Both the position numbers and the translations under genes were made by a program. This document shows, in pieces, positions 1-22,546 of a stretch of 64,000 bases of DNA. The DNA lies in the IMG/VR virus record IMGVR_UViG_3300002835_000038, positions 1 through 64,000 of that record; one strand, given 5' to 3'. Origin of the DNA: an uncultured virus (IMG/VR IMGVR_UViG_3300002835_000038). Taxonomy: Duplodnaviria > Heunggongvirae > Uroviricota > Caudoviricetes. Within the stretch, counting starts at the first letter, position 1, and every line of letters begins with the position of its first letter. The notes under the pieces were generated by a model, which searched no databases, had not been told where the DNA came from, and saw only the letters and a list, made by a program, of their open reading frames with translations.

Positions 1-76
1 TGGGTAGAATCAGACGCGTTCTGTCTACCGAGACCTTGTCGTTAACTTTCGTCAGAGCGGAACAAGACACTATTAG

Positions 77-150
77 TGATCCCGAATGGATTCGAACCAT
101 TGACCTACTGCTTAGAAGGCAGTTGCTCTATCCAGCTGAGCTACGGGACC
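77..150 (-). tRNA. tRNA-Arg(UCU)
   Basis: Cloverleaf on minus strand; anticodon loop CTTCTAA; T-loop GTTCGAATC. Confidence 0.95.
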
Positions 151-155
151 AATTT

Positions 156-320
156 TAAAAGATGATGAATGACTTTATCAGGAATCTCGCCTTCGACTTC
201 ACACACCATTAGAGAGTCGGGAATTACGACAATACAATTAAGAATGTCAACCTATCCTTAGTGTGTACCCTTGCGTCACGTCTCTCCACGCTTATCATTC
301 TACGCTTTGTATCACCTTTT
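156..320 (-). ncRNA. Unknown structured RNA between tRNAs (~165 nt)
   Basis: Terminal stem AAAAGGTGAT/ATCATCTTTT; inner hairpin CGACT/AGTCG; GC-richer than background; no convincing ORF. Confidence 0.5.
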
Positions 321-321
321 G

Positions 322-406
322 TAGTCGGGGCGGGAATCGAACCCGCACGGACGCAATGTCCATTGGATTTTAAGTCCAACGTGTCTACCTATTCCACCAC
401 CCGACC
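322..406 (-). tRNA. tRNA-Leu(UAA)
   Basis: Cloverleaf with long variable arm; loop CTTAAAA. Confidence 0.95.
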
Positions 407-441
407 AAAAGTATTAACCAATAAATTAAAGAACATTCTAG

Positions 442-513
442 TACTGCCACGGGGAATCGAACCCCGCTTTTATGGATGAAAACCATAGGTCCTAACCGAT
501 AGACGATGGCAGC
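442..513 (-). tRNA. tRNA-Glu(UUC)
   Basis: Cloverleaf; loop TTTTCAT. Confidence 0.93.
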
Positions 514-519
514 GGTTTG

Positions 520-594
520 CGGTGCGTATGGGATTCGAACCCATGACCTCTGCCGTGACAGGGCAGCATTCTAACCAGGCTAAACTAACGCACC
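520..594 (-). tRNA. tRNA-Asp(GUC)
   Basis: Cloverleaf; loop CTGTCAC. Confidence 0.95.
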
Positions 595-597
595 ATA

Positions 598-735
598 CCC
601 CCTTTATTAACCCCATTCTGATTATCTTTATACTACAATCAGACGTTACTAATGTAGTCCTTATCGTATTGTCTGACACCACTATCATATTACCCTAGTG
701 ACTTAGGCATCCACAGTGAGGAGTTAGGGGGACTA
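598..735 (-). ncRNA. Unknown structured RNA (~140 nt)
   Basis: Closing stem CCCCC-TAACTCC/GGGGTTA-GGGGG; internal complementary pairs TCAGAC/GTCTGA, ACTACA/TGTAGT, TCTGATT/AATCAGA. Confidence 0.4.
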
Positions 736-743
736 GTATTATA

Positions 744-965
744 AAACCAACAGGACTATCAAACACCTTTACTCCGTAGTCTTAGTATTTTATCGACTTT
801 AAGAGATCTGTACTCGATTCTTTTCGATTAGACTTTTAATCCTTATCGATTATACCTTTCCTCCCAGACTTCGTATTCTTTGCGCAAACCTATCCGAAGT
901 TCAAAGGGTCAGGTCCTTTAGTGATGAAAAATTAGTCATCTTATTTGATAGAACACTGTTGGTTT
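744..965 (-). ncRNA. Unknown structured RNA (~220 nt, long closing stem)
   Basis: AAACCAACAG/CTGTTGGTTT (744-753 with 956-965) stacked on CTATCAAA/TTTGATAG (756-763 with 944-951); follows a boxA-like motif. Confidence 0.5.
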
Positions 966-974
966 AAATATGTT

Positions 975-983
975 TCAAAGAAC
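975..983 (-). promoter_or_regulatory. boxA-like antitermination motif GTTCTTTGA
   Basis: Same 9-mer precedes or lies within five stable-RNA loci in the window. Confidence 0.55.
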
Positions 984-1045
984 GCTTTCTTTTTTTCTTT
1001 TACAATTATAACTACTATTTTTTAAAAAAACAATAGATATGACAA

Positions 1046-1462
1046 TTATTTTTCAGATATTTTATCTAAGATTTTAGACAAAGAATGGACTATCTGAGAT
1101 TTAATCTCATTCTCATAACCCATTCTAAGATCTTCAGTCTTTTCGTTATAACTACGAATAAGTTTATTCCAATCTCTGTCAGATAATTTGACATCATAAT
1201 GGTAAACATGATTAGTGATACTAACCTGACGATCCTCTAAAACGACAAACAAATTAAGTGTTGCGTTTTTGATGTACCTTTTTTCAGATAGAGGTGCAAT
1301 CATAAATTTAGAATCTTTGTGAGATATCATCTTTCTACAGATGGCATTACAAATAGCCTCATTCTGAGTTTTTTCCTCTTTAGGTTTTAGGGCTCTGTAA
1401 TGTATCCATAAAGTATACTTCACATACATTCTTTTCCAAAGTCTTTTAAAAAAATTTTTCAT
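1046..1462 (-). CDS. Hypothetical protein
   Basis: 138-aa ORF with upstream TATCTTTG promoter motif. Confidence 0.8.
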   Translation of the reverse strand: MKNFFKRLWKRMYVKYTLWIHYRALKPKEEKTQNEAICNAICRKMISHKDSKFMIAPLSEKRYIKNATLNLFVVLEDRQVSITNHVYHYDVKLSDRDWNKLIRSYNEKTEDLRMGYENEIKSQIVHSLSKILDKISEK

Positions 1463-1542
1463 AGTTATTTGTTTTATTTAGACAAAGATACAAATAATTT
1501 TCAATCTACCAAATTTTTTTTTATTTTTTTTAGTTTAGTACG

Positions 1543-2211
1543 TTATCCCCTATTATCAATAAAAATTAATATCTCACTATAATAGTTAATAAAATCATCA
1601 CTCCAACAATAATTGGTGATGTCTATATCATCTAAACTATATATTTTAAAGTCTGTAAACACTCTTAGGTATACGTCTCTAAACACTTTAAACTTATCTT
1701 TTAAGTCTTGTGTATTTAAGTGCCACTCACCAGATATTTTTCTTACATTTTCTTTAATCCAAAATAAATTCTCTACAGTAAATATATCATATTCACCACC
1801 TTCACAGTCTGTCTTAAGAAAATCTATTTGTTTAATATTATGATCCTTAATGACTTTAGAGAATGTTGTGGAATATGATTTATTATTAGTGGTGTCCTCA
1901 AACAGATATTCAAATTCCATCTTACCAACTTTGTCCGTTATACCTTTATTGATGTAGGTTACAGGACCGTGATTAGTATTTAAAACTAAATAAGGGAATT
2001 CGGATAAACTAGGTTCAAAACAAAAAATATGTGATGGGTTCTTTTCAATTATATTAAATGTGAACGGTCCGATACTGGCACCAATGTCAAACACGACATC
2101 TCCTTCTTCAACATCAAATACTCTAGTGTAGATACTTCTATCAAACAATTCATTAGTGATGTGTTCTTTAAACACTTCATTCGTTTTACCCCAATTAAAA
2201 ATTTTATCCAT
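1543..2211 (-). CDS. FkbM-family SAM methyltransferase
   Basis: VVFDIGASIG, CFEP, IDFLKTDCEGGEY motifs. Confidence 0.88.
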   Translation of the reverse strand: MDKIFNWGKTNEVFKEHITNELFDRSIYTRVFDVEEGDVVFDIGASIGPFTFNIIEKNPSHIFCFEPSLSEFPYLVLNTNHGPVTYINKGITDKVGKMEFEYLFEDTTNNKSYSTTFSKVIKDHNIKQIDFLKTDCEGGEYDIFTVENLFWIKENVRKISGEWHLNTQDLKDKFKVFRDVYLRVFTDFKIYSLDDIDITNYCWSDDFINYYSEILIFIDNRG

Positions 2212-2822
2212 TATATTTTTTCTTCTTTAAACATTTTTTTTATTTCATCAGATAGTTTGTCATAATCCATATCAAATTTATCTGACATAGAGTTAAGTAT
2301 TCTTTTATTACCGTATGGTGAATTTCCAGGAACTGACCAATTCCTACTAGTCTTTAAATGGTTATAAAATAATACATATGCATTTGCCTTTTTAGTATAT
2401 GTGGGTACATCAATGGGTAGATTCCATTTTTTAATCATCTCCACACTCCTCTTCTCATTATCCAATTCCAAATCTCTGGCAATATCAATGTGTGATCTAA
2501 TACCCACAATTTTTTTATCTTTGTTACCTAACCATTCCCACATTTTTTCTAAGGAAACACTTGCCCTATCCCACAACTCTATTTTATCTAACCACTGTGT
2601 CATATGACAGAACTCGTGAACTAAAAGTTCTAAATAATCTTCCCTACCTTTGGCATACGCCAGTGTTGGCGGTTTGGTATTATCATCAAAAAAACCTGCA
2701 CATTTAATATTGTCAGTTAACTTGATATATCTCCTTTTGTATTCTTTTACTTTCACACCATGTTTCTTACATTCACTCTCTACATACTTAATGAAATTTT
2801 CCACATTAGTGTTTTTACTCAT
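2211..2822 (-). CDS. Hypothetical protein with HEXXH (possible zinc metalloprotease)
   Basis: LLVHEFCH plus downstream ELDNE; start moved to MSKNTN, overlapping the stop of the upstream small ORF. Confidence 0.6.
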   Translation of the reverse strand: MSKNTNVENFIKYVESECKKHGVKVKEYKRRYIKLTDNIKCAGFFDDNTKPPTLAYAKGREDYLELLVHEFCHMTQWLDKIELWDRASVSLEKMWEWLGNKDKKIVGIRSHIDIARDLELDNEKRSVEMIKKWNLPIDVPTYTKKANAYVLFYNHLKTSRNWSVPGNSPYGNKRILNSMSDKFDMDYDKLSDEIKKMFKEEKI

Positions 2823-2973
2823 CTTTGTCTTTGTTTTTATGTTTACTCTTTCTATTATATAAATTTTTAGGGGTTTCTGATCTAGCCACAAAACGACCAT
2901 CAAAGAAACCATCCTCTATTTGTTGGTGTCTTTCTTGAGTTCTTTTCATTTTATGTTGATCATACTTTTTCAT
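2815..2973 (-). CDS. ArfA-like ribosome rescue small protein (52 aa, not in ORF track)
   Basis: Hand translation MKKYDQHKMKRTQERHQQIEDGFFDGRFVARSETPKNLYNRKSKHKNKDKDE; YxRKxKH basic motif as in ArfA; fills an operon gap. Confidence 0.55.
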   Translation of the reverse strand: MKKYDQHKMKRTQERHQQIEDGFFDGRFVARSETPKNLYNRKSKHKNKDKDE

Positions 2974-2977
2974 AACC

Positions 2978-3604
2978 TTAAAATTCTTTGTCTAACTTTT
3001 CAATCTTTTCAACTTCTGGTTTATCCATCACACATTTAATTTTTGTGGATGAGTCATCTTTTCTATGTGAAAAATGAATATGAGAATCAACAGTCATATC
3101 TGATCTATGCGGATTTCTTTTCCACCTTTCATTTCGTATTACTTGTACAATATCAAATGACATTCTACAACTATCATCCACATTTTCATTATAGATACCC
3201 CAAGAACCATTTCTAGTCATTAATGGATCATTAATCAACATGTTACGAGGTTGCACTAACATCTCATCAACATTATCTCTAATATTATGATACCTACCAT
3301 AATCAGTACTCAATTTCACATCTTTTAGTTTCTTCCATTCCTTTTCCTTACACCAATGTCCAGTTTCTTTACTAACAGAACCATTTATTAACGCCTTACC
3401 ATCTTTAATCTCTAATATTTCACCTTGTGGAGTTCTATCCCCAACCTCTGGTTGTCTTTTAGGTCTACAAACTTCCTCTAAATATACTTCAAAGGTTGGG
3501 TGATCTTTGATAACCTCAAATTGCCCAATACCTACTCTAGAGTAAAAGTCTAATGCCTTTTCTACTAACCAAAGTTGTTCGTCAGTTAATTCTAAATTAT
3601 TCAT
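2978..3604 (-). CDS. Hypothetical protein
   Basis: 208-aa ORF in tightly packed operon. Confidence 0.8.
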   Translation of the reverse strand: MNNLELTDEQLWLVEKALDFYSRVGIGQFEVIKDHPTFEVYLEEVCRPKRQPEVGDRTPQGEILEIKDGKALINGSVSKETGHWCKEKEWKKLKDVKLSTDYGRYHNIRDNVDEMLVQPRNMLINDPLMTRNGSWGIYNENVDDSCRMSFDIVQVIRNERWKRNPHRSDMTVDSHIHFSHRKDDSSTKIKCVMDKPEVEKIEKLDKEF

Positions 3605-3983
3605 TTGTTTTGTCTTTTAAATATTGTTTTACATATTCATACGTTGATTCAAATGAGAAACAAATAGGGTTACCATTTTCATCGTGTGCACCATAAGATT
3701 TCACAGGATCACTTTCGATTACTTTACCAGACACACTATCTATTGTTGGGTATTTAGACCAATCTTTTTGTCCCCAATCATTTTCAAAAATAAACCAATT
3801 TATCCAATCAATCCCTTCTTCAGTATAATGTGATTCTAAACAGGACTCAAACATAATATATACGTTATCCGACATACGGTACTTACCCTCTAAAAGATCG
3901 AAACCAATATCATATAATTCACTAATGTCCTCACTAATTTTTTTATATGACATTAATATTTTTAAAAATTCTTCGTAAGTCAT
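3597..3983 (-). CDS. Hypothetical protein
   Basis: 128-aa ORF overlapping its neighbours. Confidence 0.8.
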   Translation of the reverse strand: MTYEEFLKILMSYKKISEDISELYDIGFDLLEGKYRMSDNVYIMFESCLESHYTEEGIDWINWFIFENDWGQKDWSKYPTIDSVSGKVIESDPVKSYGAHDENGNPICFSFESTYEYVKQYLKDKTNE

Positions 3984-4252
3984 AATCTTTTAGTATTTAA
4001 AATTATTTTATCGTCTATTTTTTCAATAGACTCTACAATTAAACCTTTTAAGTCATCATGTATATAACCCATATCCATACCTAGTCCAATATATGGTCCA
4101 CCCATAGGATCAACTGCAGTATATTTTGGATTACCATTTTCATCTAAATTAAATAGAGATCTGTAAAAATCCCCACCTTTCATTTCAAATGATTCACCTT
4201 CACCAATGAAACTAATAGTTTCATCATGTCTATTTTTAAAATTATATTCCAT
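3980..4252 (-). CDS. Hypothetical protein
   Basis: 90-aa ORF, ATGA overlap. Confidence 0.75.
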   Translation of the reverse strand: MEYNFKNRHDETISFIGEGESFEMKGGDFYRSLFNLDENGNPKYTAVDPMGGPYIGLGMDMGYIHDDLKGLIVESIEKIDDKIILNTKRL

Positions 4253-4631
4253 CTTTCTTATTTTTTATTTTCATATATTCCCCATCACAAAGAGTTCTAT
4301 ACCAACCTATGTCAGTTCTTAAAGTTCCTGGTTCGCCAGTTACTTCACAAATTTCATAACTCTTATTTTCTGCCTCTGTTATTCTTTTGAATATTTCATC
4401 ACTACCACCATTAATATAGAACCTTAGTCCTCCGAACTTTTCTTTAACTTGAGTTACTTGTTTATCCCAACCCAATTTAATTAAATCTTCTATAAGTTCT
4501 TTGATGAGTTTTAACCACCCATTGTCCACTTCAAAATAACCACAATCTTTAATTGGTGGTTTTTCAGTTCTCCAACCGTTTTCTAATCCACCTATAGAAA
4601 TTAGAAAATCATTCATTTCTTCTTCTGTCAT
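4242..4631 (-). CDS. Conserved phage hypothetical protein
   Basis: QVKEKFGGLRFY...CEVTG motif of a common phage family. Confidence 0.8.
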   Translation of the reverse strand: MTEEEMNDFLISIGGLENGWRTEKPPIKDCGYFEVDNGWLKLIKELIEDLIKLGWDKQVTQVKEKFGGLRFYINGGSDEIFKRITEAENKSYEICEVTGEPGTLRTDIGWYRTLCDGEYMKIKNKKDGI

Positions 4632-4641
4632 ATATTTTATT

Positions 4642-4902
4642 TTAAACTATAAGTCTATCGATATCAATACCTCTTTCAGATAATTGTTCATTCAATTTTT
4701 CAAAAACTGAATCTATTCCATCATATACTGTAAGTTCCTCACCTTTTTCTTCTCTCCCTTCGAATTCATAATATAATCTTTTTTTAATATTATAAACCAT
4801 TTCAAATAGGACCAAAGACATATCAGTAGACTTAGTACATCTTTCGAATTCCATTTTATCGTCAAAATCTGTTAAATCAAATTCCAATTTTGCTTTACTC
4901 AT
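4642..4902 (-). CDS. Hypothetical protein
   Basis: 86-aa ORF in operon. Confidence 0.75.
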   Translation of the reverse strand: MSKAKLEFDLTDFDDKMEFERCTKSTDMSLVLFEMVYNIKKRLYYEFEGREEKGEELTVYDGIDSVFEKLNEQLSERGIDIDRLIV

Positions 4903-4915
4903 AATAATTTAATTT

Positions 4916-5266
4916 TTATTTCCAAAATAATTGTATCATTAATATTAAAAATGATAAAAATAAACAGACATATGTTTTTGTTGTCAAAGGCTCATCAAAT
5001 ACTTTCCAACTTAATAATGTAAATACCATTGCCCCAATACTGAACCCTATCAATCTGGACGGCCACATTTCACCATTAAATGCGGTTATCATATTTTTTA
5101 CTGAATACATAAATAACATTGAAATTGGGATACCTGCCAATACTGTTAACCAGTAATTATCTCTAATCCAATTATATTTAAGTTGTCCTTGTAGTTGGAA
5201 GAAAGTTAATATTTGCGCAAAAAACCCAACCAACATACCAACTAAAAGATTATTTTTATTTATCAT
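4916..5266 (-). CDS. Small 4-TM membrane protein (DMT/SMR-like topology)
   Basis: Four hydrophobic segments; EPLT motif before last helix. Confidence 0.6.
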   Translation of the reverse strand: MINKNNLLVGMLVGFFAQILTFFQLQGQLKYNWIRDNYWLTVLAGIPISMLFMYSVKNMITAFNGEMWPSRLIGFSIGAMVFTLLSWKVFDEPLTTKTYVCLFLSFLILMIQLFWK

Positions 5267-5422
5267 TTATTTTTTTATTATTTAAAAATATTATGTTTTT
5301 CAAATTCATCGTCTAATTCTTTTTGTATCTTTTTATCGTTAATGAATTTAGAATCTTCCCACGCCTCTTTAATATCACCCCATTTTATCCACAACCTAAA
5401 AAAGTCATATATTAGTTTAATT

Positions 5423-5629
5423 TTATTCACCCTTTAATAATTTTTCTTTACAATAATTATAAATTTCTTTAGCCCTATCATACTTATCCACTCTTTCATT
5501 CCAAATCACAGTAACAATATAATAAGCCTCCCAATAACTACAATTTTCAATTACATTTATATACTCCTCAACAGGAACACCCAACTCTTGTGCAATTCCC
5601 TGATCCACCATATTAAATACACCTATCAT
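5423..5629 (-). CDS. Hypothetical protein
   Basis: 68-aa ORF in operon. Confidence 0.65.
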   Translation of the reverse strand: MIGVFNMVDQGIAQELGVPVEEYINVIENCSYWEAYYIVTVIWNERVDKYDRAKEIYNYCKEKLLKGE

Positions 5630-5630
5630 A

Positions 5631-6203
5631 TTATTTTAAAAATTTAAGTATTTTATCTTTAATCCCTGATTGTTTAATACCTTCATGTCCTCTTGGCGTT
5701 AAAACAAAATTATCCAATCCCCAATCTTTCCAATCTTCACCATTCTTACCCATATCTAGATCATCAACCGCAACCCAATGTGTAATCTCAGGATGATCGT
5801 GTAGATATTGTTTTATCTCAATAACTCTAGTCATTTCTAAATCCCATCTCGGTGACCATATCCAAACCATATCATTGTACCAATTACACTGTCCTAAGTT
5901 TGGTGTTAAATCTATTGGCTTTTTAATAATACCCTGAGATTCGTAATACTCACCCATCTCTTCTAAGTTTGCCCATCGTTTCCAATCGGATGAGGTGACA
6001 ATCTCAGTACCAGTTTCTTCTATAATTTTATTAAGAATCTTAATTGCTTTTTGATTGAAGTTATCAAATCGGTACTCCAAAGGGAAATCCCCCATAGACA
6101 TAGATAACTTACGACCATCCCATTTTTCTTGTTTCTTACGTCTCCCACCCCATTCTGAAGATAAACAAATTACCCCATCATGATCTAAAAATATAACTTT
6201 CAT
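5631..6203 (-). CDS. HAD phosphatase (RNA-repair-associated HAD_SAK-like)
   Basis: KVIFLDHDGV, IVTSSDW, WVAVDD motifs. Confidence 0.75.
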   Translation of the reverse strand: MKVIFLDHDGVICLSSEWGGRRKKQEKWDGRKLSMSMGDFPLEYRFDNFNQKAIKILNKIIEETGTEIVTSSDWKRWANLEEMGEYYESQGIIKKPIDLTPNLGQCNWYNDMVWIWSPRWDLEMTRVIEIKQYLHDHPEITHWVAVDDLDMGKNGEDWKDWGLDNFVLTPRGHEGIKQSGIKDKILKFLK

Positions 6204-6508
6204 ATATAAATTTTATTATCTAAACAATATTTTACAATATAGTTTTTTAAATTGATTATTGTTTCTTTAAAATCCACTCTTTTGAATTCATTCTCCCATC
6301 TTTCACCTTCATTATCCTCTTGTAATAAATCGGAACAACTTTTACTAATCTCAGAAATAAGTTGTTTAAGTGCTACAGTCTGATCAACTACTTGATTATT
6401 CTCAATAACCAAATCTTCCAATTCTCTACAATACTCAACTAACTCCATAACTTCAGGTTCATCCATTAGTGTGGTGTTATTTTTGAATATTTGGTTGATT
6501 GACTTCAT
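6200..6508 (-). CDS. Hypothetical protein
   Basis: 102-aa ORF. Confidence 0.7.
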   Translation of the reverse strand: MKSINQIFKNNTTLMDEPEVMELVEYCRELEDLVIENNQVVDQTVALKQLISEISKSCSDLLQEDNEGERWENEFKRVDFKETIINLKNYIVKYCLDNKIYI

Positions 6509-7197
6509 ACGAATTCCATTTCATTTGTTTCAGTATCCCAAATCACATTAACAGGTTTGTTTCGATATTCGTATCTATCATTTAACACTGACGCATTAAT
6601 ATAATGCGTATTACCATCAAACACATACCCATAACCCTCATGTATGTGCCCAAATACGTGAATTTTTGGTTTTATTTCTTCAACACGTTTCATAAGTTCT
6701 TCACACCCAACGTTCTCATTTCCATAACGGACATAATCTAACTTCCCAAAAGGTGGACCGTGAGTGATAAGAATATCCGTATCCACAGGAATCATATCCC
6801 ATTTCTCTTTTAACTTTTCACCTCTAGGTAAATTAAATGCCCAATTAAAAAACTCTGGTTGCCAAGGTGTACCATAAATTACTAACTGTTGATCTTCATC
6901 GTCCCAAAGATCCATTCTTTCGTCCTGAAGATATTCAACGTTCTTATATCCTGTTAATAAACCTATTAGTTTTTCATAATCGTTCTCAAACCCAAAATCG
7001 TGATTCCCCGCAATAAAAACTTTAAAGTCGTAATTGTCTATACTATCAAACCACTTTAAAAAGTTTTCAATCTCAGTAATATACCCTCGACTAGATATGT
7101 CACCCGCACAAATAAGAATATCTCCACCAGTTAAAAAACTGTTTAGTTTTTCGTGTTTGGTGTGTGTATCACTTATAAATGTTATTTTCTTTTTCAT
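6505..7197 (-). CDS. Calcineurin-like metallophosphoesterase
   Basis: SDTH, AGD, GNHD, THGPP, FGHIHE motifs. Confidence 0.92.
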   Translation of the reverse strand: MKKKITFISDTHTKHEKLNSFLTGGDILICAGDISSRGYITEIENFLKWFDSIDNYDFKVFIAGNHDFGFENDYEKLIGLLTGYKNVEYLQDERMDLWDDEDQQLVIYGTPWQPEFFNWAFNLPRGEKLKEKWDMIPVDTDILITHGPPFGKLDYVRYGNENVGCEELMKRVEEIKPKIHVFGHIHEGYGYVFDGNTHYINASVLNDRYEYRNKPVNVIWDTETNEMEFV

Positions 7198-7199
7198 AA

Positions 7200-7364
7200 T
7201 TAATCAAAAAAACCACCAAAATATAATAATGTTAGATGTATTGTTACACCTATCATAGTAACAAAGACACTGTGATTCCCTTCTTTTGGTTTACCGTGTA
7301 AATAAGAAGAAATCATTAAGTTAAGTCCAATAAGACTTAGTAAGATAATTTGTGGAACCCCCAT
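7200..7364 (-). CDS. Small membrane protein
   Basis: Two hydrophobic helices; start taken at MGVPQ, downstream of promoter motif. Confidence 0.6.
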   Translation of the reverse strand: MGVPQIILLSLIGLNLMISSYLHGKPKEGNHSVFVTMIGVTIHLTLLYFGGFFD

Positions 7365-7433
7365 AATATATAATTTAGTAAACAAATATAGTTATTATTT
7401 CCCATAAAAACAAATGTTTTAACATTTTTATAG

Positions 7434-7508
7434 TACCAAAGGTGAGATTCGAACTCACAAACCTTTGTTTCTAAGACAAAGAGGTATACCTATTCCCGTC
7501 ACTTTGGT
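7434..7508 (-). tRNA. tRNA-Leu(UAG), short variable loop
   Basis: Cloverleaf; loop CTTAGAA; 75 nt. Confidence 0.85.
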
Positions 7509-7514
7509 ATTTTG

Positions 7515-7587
7515 AGCAGGTGGAGAGAATCGAACTCTCGTCCTCTGATTGGAAGTCAGACATAATAAGCCACTATACGACACCTGC
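7515..7587 (-). tRNA. tRNA-Gly(UCC)
   Basis: Cloverleaf; loop CTTCCAA. Confidence 0.95.
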
Positions 7588-7737
7588 ATAATTAGTTTAC
7601 CTAATTTTTAATTTTTTAAAGATATTGATTATCTTTTTGAGATTGAGATTACTTCTCCTACTCAAAAGAAAGTTCACATTTTCTTTTGATGATTTAAACG
7701 TTCCTTTTACTACTACTTTCATATTATTTATTTTTTG

Positions 7738-7811
7738 TGGATACATCTCGGCTTCGAACCGAGGACTCCTGAGTGCAAATCAGGTATGATAGCCAGCTTC
7801 ATCAATGACCC
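7738..7811 (-). tRNA. tRNA-Ala(UGC)
   Basis: Loop TTTGCAC; G3-U pair; one-nt bulge in acceptor stem. Confidence 0.85.
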
Positions 7812-7816
7812 ATTAG

Positions 7817-7891
7817 TTGCGGGGGAGGGACTCGAACCCACGTAGTTCGGCTTATGAGACCGAGCTGGAACCACCTCCAGTCTACCCCGCA
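7817..7891 (-). tRNA. tRNA-Met(CAU), initiator-like
   Basis: Loop CTCATAA; GCGGGG/CCCCGC acceptor stem and TCGG anticodon stem resemble tRNA-fMet. Confidence 0.85.
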
Positions 7892-7923
7892 ATTTTTAAT
7901 TACACCGAATTCGGTATATTTAG

Positions 7924-7998
7924 TTCTCCCGACAGGATTCGAACCTGTGACTCCCTCATTAAAAGTGAGGTGCTCTAAACCAACTGAGCTACGAGAGA
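7924..7998 (-). tRNA. tRNA-Lys(UUU)
   Basis: Cloverleaf; loop CTTTTAA. Confidence 0.95.
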
Positions 7999-8004
7999 TT
8001 GTTG

Positions 8005-8076
8005 AGGTTCCGCTCAGATTCGAACTGAGGACACATGATTACAAATCAAGCGTTTTACCAACTAAACTACAGAACC
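8005..8076 (-). tRNA. tRNA-Thr(UGU)
   Basis: Cloverleaf; loop TTTGTAA. Confidence 0.9.
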
Positions 8077-8123
8077 TTATTATCACCCGTATGGTAACCG
8101 CTTGATTAACGGGCGAAAAATAG

Positions 8124-8196
8124 TAGTCTCTGTAGGGTTCGAACCTACGACATCTTGCATGTAAAACAAGCACTCTACCAACTGAGTTAAGAGACT
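8124..8196 (-). tRNA. tRNA-Val(UAC)
   Basis: Cloverleaf; loop TTTACAT. Confidence 0.93.
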
Positions 8197-8200
8197 GTTG

Positions 8201-8284
8201 CGGAAGAGTGAGGTATCGATCCCCATACCCGAAGGTACCACTAGTTTTCAAGACTAGGTCCAGCGCCAGCTGAATTACTCTTCC
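8201..8284 (-). tRNA. tRNA-Ser(UGA)
   Basis: Long variable arm; loop CTTGAAA; G73. Confidence 0.92.
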
Positions 8285-8300
8285 AGTTTTTTTCAATACG

Positions 8301-8309
8301 TCAAAGAAC
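8301..8309 (-). promoter_or_regulatory. boxA-like motif GTTCTTTGA
   Basis: Between attenuator terminator 1 and the first tRNA. Confidence 0.55.
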
Positions 8310-8310
8310 T

Positions 8311-8344
8311 AAAAACAAAAAACCCTAAGTTTTCACTTAGGGTT
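8311..8344 (-). terminator. Attenuator intrinsic terminator 1
   Basis: AACCCTAAGT-GAAA-ACTTAGGGTT followed by TTTTGTTTTT. Confidence 0.9.
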
Positions 8345-8371
8345 CCCATTTATAGTATTAAAATTTTACGA

Positions 8372-8470
8372 TTAACTAATGTGACATACCCTAAGTATTG
8401 GATGAAGCGAATCCGCCCCTTCCATTTTCGTCTTAACGACCTCTAGTCTGTATGTGAATGTAGTTAACAT
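8372..8470 (-). CDS. Leader (attenuator) peptide 1, 32 aa: MLTTFTYRLEVVKTKMEGADSLHPILRVCHIS
   Basis: ATG to TAA between promoter and terminator; contains ACTTAGGGT complementary to the terminator 5' arm; core codons match downstream tRNAs. Confidence 0.8.
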   Translation of the reverse strand: MLTTFTYRLEVVKTKMEGADSLHPILRVCHIS

Positions 8471-8482
8471 TGAATTTTTATT

Positions 8483-8537
8483 TGTTTTTAATTAAATATA
8501 CACAAATATACAAAAGTTTAAACAAAAAGTCAAATAT
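8483..8537 (-). promoter_or_regulatory. Promoter of tRNA operon 2 (TTGACT-17 nt-TATATTTG)
   Basis: Near-identical 55-bp copy at 10326-10380; matches Bacteroidota -33 TTTG / -7 TAnnTTTG consensus. Confidence 0.8.
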
Positions 8538-9791: not shown

Positions 9792-9795
9792 GTAT

Positions 9796-9870
9796 AAATG
9801 TTCAGGAAGACTTTTTTTACATTTCCAAATTAGTAGTTTTTTATTTGCTGAAATCTTCCTTTTAACATTT
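9796..9870 (-). ncRNA. Small stem-closed RNA (candidate Y-like RNA, copy A)
   Basis: AAATGTT/AACATTT and AGGAAGAT/GTCTTCCT stems; loop begins TTCAGCAA..AAAAACTAC, as in the RNAs beside the TROVE gene. Confidence 0.55.
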
Positions 9871-10162: not shown

Positions 10163-10193
10163 AAAAAACCCCAACTCATTTCTGAATTGGGGT
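10163..10193 (-). terminator. Attenuator intrinsic terminator 2
   Basis: ACCCCAATTCA-GAAA-TGAGTTGGGGT followed by TTTTT. Confidence 0.9.
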
Positions 10194-10219
10194 ACTTTAA
10201 TCCTTTATTTATTTATCTA

Positions 10220-10318
10220 TCAAAATTTAAATAACGACATAACATACCCCATCCTTCCGTAAATATAAAACGGTTGACACCACTGTATCGGATTACTATG
10301 TATGTTATTCATTATCAT
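10220..10318 (-). CDS. Leader (attenuator) peptide 2, 32 aa: MIMNNIHSNPIQWCQPFYIYGRMGYVMSLFKF
   Basis: ATG to TGA between promoter and terminator; TGGGGTAT complementary to GTACCCCA of the terminator 5' arm; core codons match downstream tRNAs. Confidence 0.8.
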   Translation of the reverse strand: MIMNNIHSNPIQWCQPFYIYGRMGYVMSLFKF

Positions 10319-21924: not shown

Positions 21925-21998
21925 AACTTTTTATATTACCTTTTGTTATTATTTAACAATGTTAATGAAAATATAATTAACTGTAAATGTTATAAAAC

Positions 21999-22027
21999 AA
22001 AAAAGGGAAGATTTCTCTTCCCTCTTT
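21999..22027 (-). terminator. Intrinsic terminator ending the TROVE-ncRNA transcript
   Basis: AGGGAAGA/TCTTCCCT stem followed by T-tract on minus strand. Confidence 0.75.
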
Positions 22028-22033
22028 AATTTC

Positions 22034-22313
22034 GGTGTCGGAATGGTGATCCTCTTTTATTTTCGGTGGTAGACTAACCACCCCTACATTATTACCCGTT
22101 TTGGTTCGGATGTCTTTTTTTTAATTGAGACAAACTCAACTATCTTTTTCACATGAGATAAACAAGAGGTATGTTTTACGACCTAGAGTGTGGGTCAACC
22201 CCACTTTAACTCACCTATGGTCGCCACTTTATACTTTAATCTGAAGTAAAGTGGTAAAACCCCGTCTGATCAACTTGTTTTTTTGTAGTTTTTAAAGTTG
22301 CAGAAACCATTCG
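22034..22313 (-). ncRNA. Candidate Y-like RNA, copy B (~280 nt)
   Basis: 5' CGAATGGT-TTCTGCAA..AAAAACTAC pairs with 3' ACCATTCCGA; several internal hairpins; no ORF. Confidence 0.55.
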
Positions 22314-22368
22314 TTTATTGGACTTAAAGGGAGTACGTTAACCCCCAATCCTTTACACCTAATGACAT

Positions 22369-22530
22369 TGTGGTATCGGAATCGTCTGACACTTTTACAT
22401 AACCTTGAGTGGTCCCTCCGCTTTCACGGTTTACACCCTTATAGTTATGTGGGTTATCAAAGCCCTCTTCCTGATTGTAGCTTAATTTATAGGTTTAAAA
22501 TTTTGCTGCAATGATTCGTTAACTACCACA
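22369..22530 (-). ncRNA. Candidate Y-like RNA, copy C (~160 nt)
   Basis: TGTGGTA/TACCACA outer stem; CGAATCAT-TGCAGCAA pairs with ACGATTCCGA. Confidence 0.55.
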
Positions 22531-22537
22531 AATATCT

Positions 22538-22546
22538 TCAAAGAAC
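22538..22546 (-). promoter_or_regulatory. boxA-like motif GTTCTTTGA
   Basis: Between the TROVE stop codon and the ncRNAs. Confidence 0.55.

Follow-up and report, generated by a model that had tools for sequence, protein, structure and literature searches.

A predicted leader-peptide attenuator ahead of a phage tRNA array, with codons for tRNA genes likely lost from that array

The window analyzed here, a stretch of 64,000 nucleotides from an uncultured virus, has a G+C content of 30% and is a piece of a large phage-like genome. It contains a tmRNA and 23 tRNAs (ARAGORN, default settings) and encodes a sigma-70 protein, and we read some of its other open reading frames (ORFs) as Mre11/Rad50-like and several long ones as structural-type. 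No cultured close relative was found: the best matches in the phage collection cover at most 6% of the tRNA region, and the core proteins are less than 40% identical. For sequence beyond the window edge, near-identical records (G001, L001-L006) were consulted. The features considered here comprise a short leader ORF followed by a predicted terminator and an array of tRNA genes (leader 1 and array 1), a second unit of the same build ahead of array 2, and a distant tRNA cluster at the edge of the window (Table 1).

Table 1. Coordinates of features in the window, with the basis on which each was assigned.
Feature	Coordinates	Strand	Basis or remark
Bacteroidetes-type promoter-like site (TTTG, ~20 nt, TATATTTG)	8503..8534	-	two-box pattern
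TATTTAAT, variant of a motif preceding several structural-type genes	8491..8498	-	putative phage late promoter
Leader ORF 1, 32 codons plus TAA	8372..8470	-	31-32 codons in every homolog, frame unchanged
Protector/pause helix, 5' strands: TTAACTA 8467-8461, ACATAC 8455-8450	8450..8467	-	fold
Sensing core, codons 8-22	8405..8449	-	codon-to-tRNA match, fold model
Antiterminator strand ACTTAGGGT (codons 25-28), complementary to 8343-8335	8388..8396	-	9-bp helix
Protector helix, 3' strands: GTATGT 8389-8384, TAGTTAA 8378-8372	8372..8389	-	fold
Intrinsic terminator hairpin and U-tract (predicted)	8311..8347	-	z = -4.06
boxA-like GTTCTTTGA	8301..8309	-	our label
Array 1: Ser UGA, Val, Thr, Lys, Met, Ala, Gly, Leu UAG	7433..8284	-	ARAGORN, Rfam
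Ser-Val junction; relatives have ~236 extra bases with tRNA-Asp and a permuted tRNA-like element	8196..8202	-	Ser-to-Val offset 88 nt in window, 324 nt in L275
Internally deleted array-1 tRNA-Glu remnant, between Val and Thr	8077..8122	-	alignment to relatives' Glu
Promoter-like site for protein genes downstream of array 1	7383..7414	-	promoter pattern
Promoter-like site ahead of ORF 1462-1046	1483..1513	-	promoter pattern
Distant cluster's promoter-like (1034-1003) and boxA-like (983-975) sites	975..1034	-	no leader ORF or terminator before tRNAs
Distant cluster: Asp, Glu, Leu UAA, Arg UCU	76..594	-	ARAGORN
Sister attenuator 2 (MIMNNIHSNPIQWCQPFYIYGRMGYVMSLFKF plus terminator), ahead of array 2	10168..10318	-	same build as leader 1

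A two-box promoter pattern of the Bacteroidetes type, for which TAnnTTTG is given as the consensus (PMC6414381), has 49 matches on the minus strand of the window, 27 of them outside long ORFs, versus 8 on the plus strand. This excess in non-coding parts of the coding strand suggests a Bacteroidetes host for this phage. The instance upstream of leader 1 scores also as a sigma70-like TTGACT-17-TATATT site. The motif TATTTAWW occurs on the minus strand at 8498, 10341, 14300, 24728, 29788, 33496, 34409, 36171, 39354, 40731, 52255 and 55193; it precedes both leaders and many structural-type genes, and is a candidate promoter for the phage's own sigma factor.

The leader ORF (8470-8372, minus strand) translates as MLTTFTYRLEVVKTKMEGADSLHPILRVCHIS*. 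An initial annotation of this DNA had read it as the leader of an attenuator whose codons 8-22, together with TTA at codon 2, represent both the eight tRNAs next to it and four tRNAs about 7 kb downstream. The codons it listed are exactly those of the ORF, and its eight adjacent tRNAs are all present, seven being called by ARAGORN under default settings and the eighth being a divergent Ser(UGA) at 8202-8284 that is detected only at a relaxed ARAGORN threshold and by the Rfam tRNA-Sec model (47.9 bits). The excess of G-ending codons that it had remarked upon is also borne out, with 6 of the 14 non-ATG core codons ending in G versus 2.0 expected from the genes of the window (P = 0.008); such codons would heighten the sensitivity of a sensor to U34 tRNAs. 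All 15 core codons fall within the combined adjacent and distant tRNA sets (P = 0.0007). The four that are not matched by an adjacent tRNA all belong to the distant set (P = 0.02), but for three of these four a simpler cause was found, as described below.

The pairings proposed at the outset were recovered as well. The antiterminator helix is present with its 9 bp (-12.3 kcal/mol), and both protector pairings, TTAACTA/TAGTTAA and ACATAC/GTATGT, appear in the predicted fold of the leader (z = -3.37). Among seven homologs the terminator hairpin is paired in 100% of cells. The antiterminator helix is 92% paired in leader-1 homologs and the protector helix 81% paired across the seven, with one compensatory pair in each, this covariation being thin in both helices (it is reached by 20-25 of 500 shuffles). 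In the fold model, which assumes a ribosome footprint, the antiterminator of an untranslated leader is not blocked by the protector; under translation it is free when the A site lies at codons up to 22 and masked when it lies at codons 23-32, a boundary that coincides with the end of the matched codons. A leader with no ribosome on it likewise leaves it free (0.98), and so, for the most part, does a ribosome whose A site has reached the stop codon (0.81). The element following the terminator was labeled boxA-like in part on the basis of the Aquifex boxA (PMC3177189). When the full leader was folded at equilibrium, the terminator formed at every ribosome position (P ≥ 0.97). A switch by equilibrium folding was thus rejected, since the terminator wins throughout, and any switch must therefore be kinetic. 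The same dominance would suit a constitutive terminator or a processing signal, next to which the short ORF is incidental and the codon match a product of chance or base composition; a constitutive terminator directly ahead of a promoterless array, however, would silence that array.

This explanation was confronted with a wider family of leaders. Viral contigs were scanned for a terminator tail followed by a boxA-like motif (54 + 103 stretches), and the tRNA regions of relatives were added via a neighboring gene, for a total of 201 loci. Of the 236 candidate sites in these loci, 211 scored well for start context; the unique leaders accompanied by four or more tRNAs numbered 82 and were clustered at 45% identity into 29 groups, a set that was chosen by the terminator-plus-boxA pattern, that retains apparent false positives and whose groups are not fully independent. 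Across the 29 groups, core codons match the leader's own array in 431 of 546 cases (79%), versus 57% for shuffled pairings, and none of 100,000 permutations reached as high a value. Tail codons show no enrichment (94/187). Between a leader tail and the terminator arm of the same unit the pairing energy is -12.0 kcal/mol, versus -8.0 kcal/mol for shuffled combinations (again 0/100,000), and no preferential pairing with that arm was found for the 5' halves of the leaders. The codon match rate is 0.92-0.96 at four to six codons before the antiterminator and at background from two codons before it, so that the drop sits at the distance that a ribosome would be expected to cover. Two permutation tests without a single exceedance, the lack of enrichment in the tails and a match boundary at ribosome-footprint distance all run against a constitutive terminator beside an incidental ORF, which we regard as extremely unlikely. 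An intrinsic terminator lies 20-37 nt past the leader stop in 28 of the 29 groups. G-ending codons make up CCG 16/31, TCG 14/32, ACG 8/17 and AAG 15/30 across the leader cores, to be compared with shares of 7%, 7%, 8% and 20% in the genes of the window. Codons 7-9 match the arrays weakly across the family (0.66-0.76 versus 0.54-0.64).

The window holds a second member of this family. Array 2 consists of Ile, Asn, Tyr, Trp, Phe, Pro, Gln, His, Ser GCU, Ile UAU, Arg ACG and Cys tRNAs, and codons 4-20 of attenuator 2 all fall in array-2 boxes (P = 8e-8). The boxA-like site of array 2 (10067, minus strand) lies after its first tRNA, Ile GAU, and not before it, an arrangement that is conserved in relatives, and a non-tRNA hairpin element within the array (9795-9870, minus strand) is conserved at 81-85% in relatives. 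Among cultured phages, three predicted leader-terminator units are present in Cellulophaga phage phi4:1 (locus L298, at 3501, 4461 and 6207), and the codons of each largely correspond to the tRNA block that it precedes. One exact terminator-plus-boxA pattern, which by its nature cannot show absence from hosts, was run against 185,579 prokaryote genomes and had two matches, both in short MAG contigs, one with a leader and a tRNA array, probably a piece of phage, and the other without a tRNA. A 3.1-kb contig of that collection, filed under a Saccharibacteria MAG (L285), has a leader, a terminator, a boxA-like site and 13 tRNAs, and is probably a mis-binned piece of phage. The second attenuators of five relatives (L157, L159, L160, L162 and L164) have a host-type promoter-like site directly after the terminator, suggesting that one tRNA block is transcribed both at a basal level and under attenuation. 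Some arrays of relatives include tRNAs with a CUA anticodon (L111 and L112, ~3680-3711) and elsewhere UUA ('Stop') calls, which are possible suppressor tRNAs.

In order to follow the history of array 1, homologs of leader 1 were gathered with peptide and DNA patterns; chance pattern matches were dropped (1 of 11 in metagenomes, L274; 3 of 12 in viral contigs, L286, L287 and L295), and 10 distinct DNA types were obtained. Over codons 8-22, the five close types present three amino-acid changes, all within the amino acids of the array, the other changes being silent. Asp and Glu tRNAs lie inside array 1 in 6 of the 10 types, in the order Ser, Asp, Val, Glu, Thr, Lys, Met, Ala, Gly, Leu(UAG), with one type rearranged after Lys. 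One relative, L275, has the same codons 1-22 as the window, with 0 differences in 66 nt (in the neighboring genes 78 of 219 four-fold sites differ), and an intact Ser-Asp-Val-Glu array. The window itself keeps a remnant of the array-1 tRNA-Glu, with both the 5' and 3' ends preserved and the anticodon and most of the T arm gone. Against the L275 array Glu this remnant has 38 matches and 7 mismatches, and its alignment score is 48.8 to Glu versus at most 17.4 to the other nine array tRNAs. This array layout recurs in two viral records and one metagenome contig, and an assembly slip is therefore unlikely. Since relatives carry Asp and Glu at these places and the window keeps a Glu remnant, three of the four codons that had been assigned to the distant tRNAs correspond to former genes of array 1 itself, and the Glu and Asp codons of leader 1 are likely leftovers of tRNA genes deleted from that array. 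With the array reconstructed to 10 tRNAs, 14 of the 15 core codons fit (P = 0.001).

Other array reductions were compared with their leaders. In L126 and L281, which have cleanly lost the array Glu, GGG stands at both positions where the sister type L270 has GAG, evidence that leaders follow array content. In L269, L273 and L279 the leader is unchanged over an array reduced to Gly and Leu, which reflects either a lag or an assembly artifact. All three Glu and Asp codons are kept in the window; at the divergence of the remnant this has a chance probability of about 0.22, and their retention therefore does not discriminate. Two further observations concern the array-1 region of relatives. In L097, L098 and L101 the Ser-Asp gap holds a permuted tRNA-like element, with the T-arm half before the D-arm half and a long closing stem, which is absent from the window by deletion and which we take to resemble bacterial Y RNAs of the YrlA type. 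The array-1 tRNA-Asp of L097 (at 3319), L101 (at 10421), L271 and L275 has the anticodon loop CTGTCTA instead of CTGTCAC, the kind of change proposed for escape from anticodon nucleases.

The codon for Arg has a different record. Arg(UCU) and Leu(UAA) are found in array 1 in none of the 10 types, two of which are cut by contig ends. Conservation of the Arg, Glu and Asp codons in homologous leaders, on which the initial annotation had let the distant link depend, holds for AGA within the subclade of the window, where it is invariant at codon 8, and gives way to Lys for Arg in the two most distant leader-1 homologs. Leaders of the subclade also always have TTA at codon 2 or 9, and the two types outside it (L270, L281) have neither AGA nor TTA. 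Codon 2 on its own was rejected as a Leu(UAA) sensor, its TTA not being conserved (AAA in three of the five close types). A hand estimate from codon frequencies places the chance that a lone non-array codon is AGR or TTR at about 1 in 5.

The distant cluster itself was confirmed as first described, its Arg UCU, Leu UAA, Glu UUC and Asp GUC tRNAs all being called by ARAGORN under default settings; in the near-identical record G001 it runs on past the window edge with a Met CAU. The long ORFs between the clusters (1046-7385) are all on the minus strand, as had been stated. The RNA-healing enzymes said to lie among them come down to Pfam matches, from 20 proteins scanned: HAD_SAK_2 at 5631-6203 and a calcineurin-like phosphoesterase at 6505-7197. 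In five of five records, the cluster opens with its own promoter-like site followed immediately by a boxA-like site, without a leader, and Arg(UCU) (5/5) and Leu(UAA) (4/5) are its steadiest members. When HNH and ORF 1046-1462 were used as baits, 73 of 80 loci had no tRNA cluster in the flank. One RNA run (0.16 of the words) gave short contigs on 1-8520, mostly tRNA-like stretches and many of them unlike the window, with no contig spanning the two clusters, and was uninformative.

Several non-coding stretches on the minus strand accompany these genes. About 170 nt between Leu(UAA) and Arg(UCU) (151-320) are conserved at 75-89% in at least nine other phage records and fold into a long hairpin with no Rfam match, making them a candidate ncRNA. 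A structured stretch of about 378 nt (598-975; -94.7 kcal/mol) extends from the boxA-like site to tRNA-Asp; it is present only in near-identical records and absent in G003. The 75-nt non-tRNA element after Arg(UCU) (1-75) is 81-88% identical in nine loci from the tRNA regions of other phages. Elsewhere in the window, a non-coding region of about 616 nt (21930-22546) with a boxA-like site at its start directly follows a DUF2828/DUF7788 gene and is 81-83% conserved in L086-L089; its RNAs are possibly Y-RNA-like, beside a Ro-like protein.

Two accounts had been offered for the distant match. The first is that the clusters were formerly one contiguous block, later split by some 7 kb of inserted protein genes. 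In four more distant phages (L160, L162, L163 and L164), Asp, Glu, Arg(UCU) and Leu(UAA) are indeed joined with Gly, Thr, Met, Ala and Leu(UAG) in one attenuated block, and a deep common operon is conceivable from this arrangement. For Glu and Asp, however, the account fails. The distant Glu of the window is 83-95% identical to the distant Glu of G002, G027 and G003 and 52-62% identical to the array-1 Glu, and it was therefore not split off from array 1; both Glu paralogs occur side by side in G002 and G027, where the distant cluster coexists with the Asp and Glu of the array. The distant Asp of the window shares 59-66% identity with each of the other Asp genes in the comparison. The genes in between are syntenic across relatives, and no leader-1 record has Arg(UCU) or Leu(UAA) beside array 1. 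A former contiguous block is thus largely refuted for Glu and Asp, and very unlikely overall.

The second account is a long reach of leader 1, in which read-through also feeds the 76-594 cluster, for example late in infection, and the AGA, the TTA and the retained Glu and Asp codons still sense Arg(UCU), Leu(UAA), Glu and Asp 7.7 kb away. It agrees with the co-orientation of the genes and with the prediction that the minus strand of the window is free of terminator-like hairpins from 7433 to 600, with AGA occupying codon 8 in every type of the subclade, always alongside a TTA at one of codons 2 and 9, and with the steadiness of Arg(UCU) and Leu(UAA) in the cluster. The putative late-promoter motif precedes both leaders and is found nowhere outside coding sequence before the distant cluster, and L126 lost its Glu codons along with the Glu tRNA whereas the window kept them. 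In the sister leader family, moreover, AGA is present at codons 10-16 in five of five complete arrays with Arg(UCU), a gene that may lie up to 4.8 kb downstream of the leader, and in none of three without it (two truncated arrays were set aside). These points are offset by the promoter-like and boxA-like sites of the cluster itself, and by two relatives (G003, whose proteins are mostly 74-94% identical to those of the window, and G004) that retain the cluster at a syntenic place from which both arrays and both leaders are absent. In G002 and G027 the cluster lies 12-15 kb from array 1, with a terminator-like hairpin (-13.1 kcal/mol) about 1.4 kb ahead of it. TTA is the commonest Leu codon (66%), and at codon 2 it takes part in a pairing; codons 7-9 are weakly matched across the family, and the AGA/TTA contrast involves two clades only. 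A long reach is accordingly considered unlikely. A single transcript from 8480 to 77 need not be invoked to account for the Glu and Asp codons, and most transcription of the cluster would start at its own promoter and be free of attenuation. This leaves AGA and a TTA as the sole codons without an explanation, and read-through control of the distant Arg and Leu tRNAs is therefore conceivable as a functional feature, though a minor possibility. Of the initial annotation, then, the attenuator is well supported, and neither account of its distant link is required for Glu and Asp, a long read-through transcript being a minor possibility for AGA and TTA.

Leader 1 and its terminator are probably a real, functional attenuator of the tRNA array, having, apart from the protector helix, the features expected of one at the level of sequence: a short conserved ORF, cognate control codons, an intrinsic terminator and an antiterminator exclusive with it. 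Our favored explanation, which we consider likely, is that a ribosome-dependent transcription attenuator gates array 1 and that its Glu and Asp codons are leftovers of deleted Asp and Glu genes. When tRNAs are plentiful, the ribosome would reach codons 23-32 and cover ACTTAGGGT, and the terminator would halt transcription before the first tRNA. If a Ser(UCN), Val, Thr, Lys, Met, Ala, Gly or Leu(CUN) tRNA were scarce, whether through cleavage by a host defense or because it is uncharged, the ribosome would lag at codons up to 22. ACTTAGGGT could then capture the 5' arm of the terminator as it emerges, allowing the polymerase to pass the U-tract; it would probably load Nus factors at the boxA-like site and go on to transcribe array 1. 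The phage would thus likely make array-1 tRNAs when its ribosomes run short of them. At the level of the family, it is very likely that large phages of the Bacteroidetes type audit decoding as a whole through a set of two or three short test ORFs, every one of which gates a matching tRNA block, and so replace on demand the tRNAs that a host defense destroys. A fuller version, in which leader 1 also reaches the RNA-repair-type genes and the distant Arg, Leu, Glu and Asp tRNAs via a boxA-protected transcript of about 8.4 kb, and in which two leaders therefore cover all 20 amino acids, is doubtful.

It has long been asked why phages encode tRNAs (PMC10264068). A sensor written in the codons that the phage's own tRNAs read implies that phage tRNAs are made in response to slow decoding, which is expected if they replace tRNAs lost to host defense or starvation, and the idea can be tested codon by codon in the cultured phage phi4:1. 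Such a leader would offer a compact readout of tRNA status across many codons. Leader 1 also records the history of its array, spelling two tRNAs whose genes were deleted; the 7-kb link, the weaker part of the finding, is mostly a record of this loss, with a residual possibility for Arg and Leu.

The multivalent leader peptides trpL, hisL, pheL, thrL and ilvL of E. coli are transcription attenuators of amino-acid operons. Like them, the phage unit combines a short leader ORF containing control codons, an antiterminator over the 3' end of the ORF and an intrinsic terminator; a 1:2 helix is predicted in its fold. Unlike them, it controls tRNA genes, uses each codon type once or twice instead of in runs, samples some 8-19 codon boxes and has a boxA-like site after the terminator. 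The fold model further suggests that an untranslated leader, or one with the ribosome on its stop codon, leaves the antiterminator free, in contrast to textbook trp logic, and that an untranslated phage leader would yield read-through and not super-attenuation. Searches of mainly open-access literature returned no paper in which tRNA genes, or the tRNA arrays of phages, are under the control of a leader peptide. In E. coli, pheM-pheST is an attenuator of aminoacyl-tRNA synthetase genes, and it too lets the speed of leader translation set the supply of a component of the translation machinery. In bacilli, histidine leader peptides are described ahead of hisS paralogs (PMC2965389). The output of the phage unit differs from that of synthetase-gene attenuators in being tRNA itself, of many species at once, and its likely trigger would be tRNA loss in infection, not amino-acid starvation. 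T-box riboswitches control some tRNA genes in Firmicutes, and there as well tRNA status chooses between terminator and antiterminator; a T-box binds one uncharged tRNA directly, whereas the phage unit would sense through a translated ORF. A T-box or other Rfam cis-element was rejected at this locus, with no match at gathering or E ≤ 1 thresholds. Finally, phage tRNAs have been described as a counter-defense to host anticodon nucleases (PMC10264068). There the discussion concerns tRNA sequence and not regulated expression ('attenuat' has 0 occurrences), and the attenuator proposed here shares with such counter-defense tRNAs the reason for a phage supply of tRNAs when those of the host are depleted.
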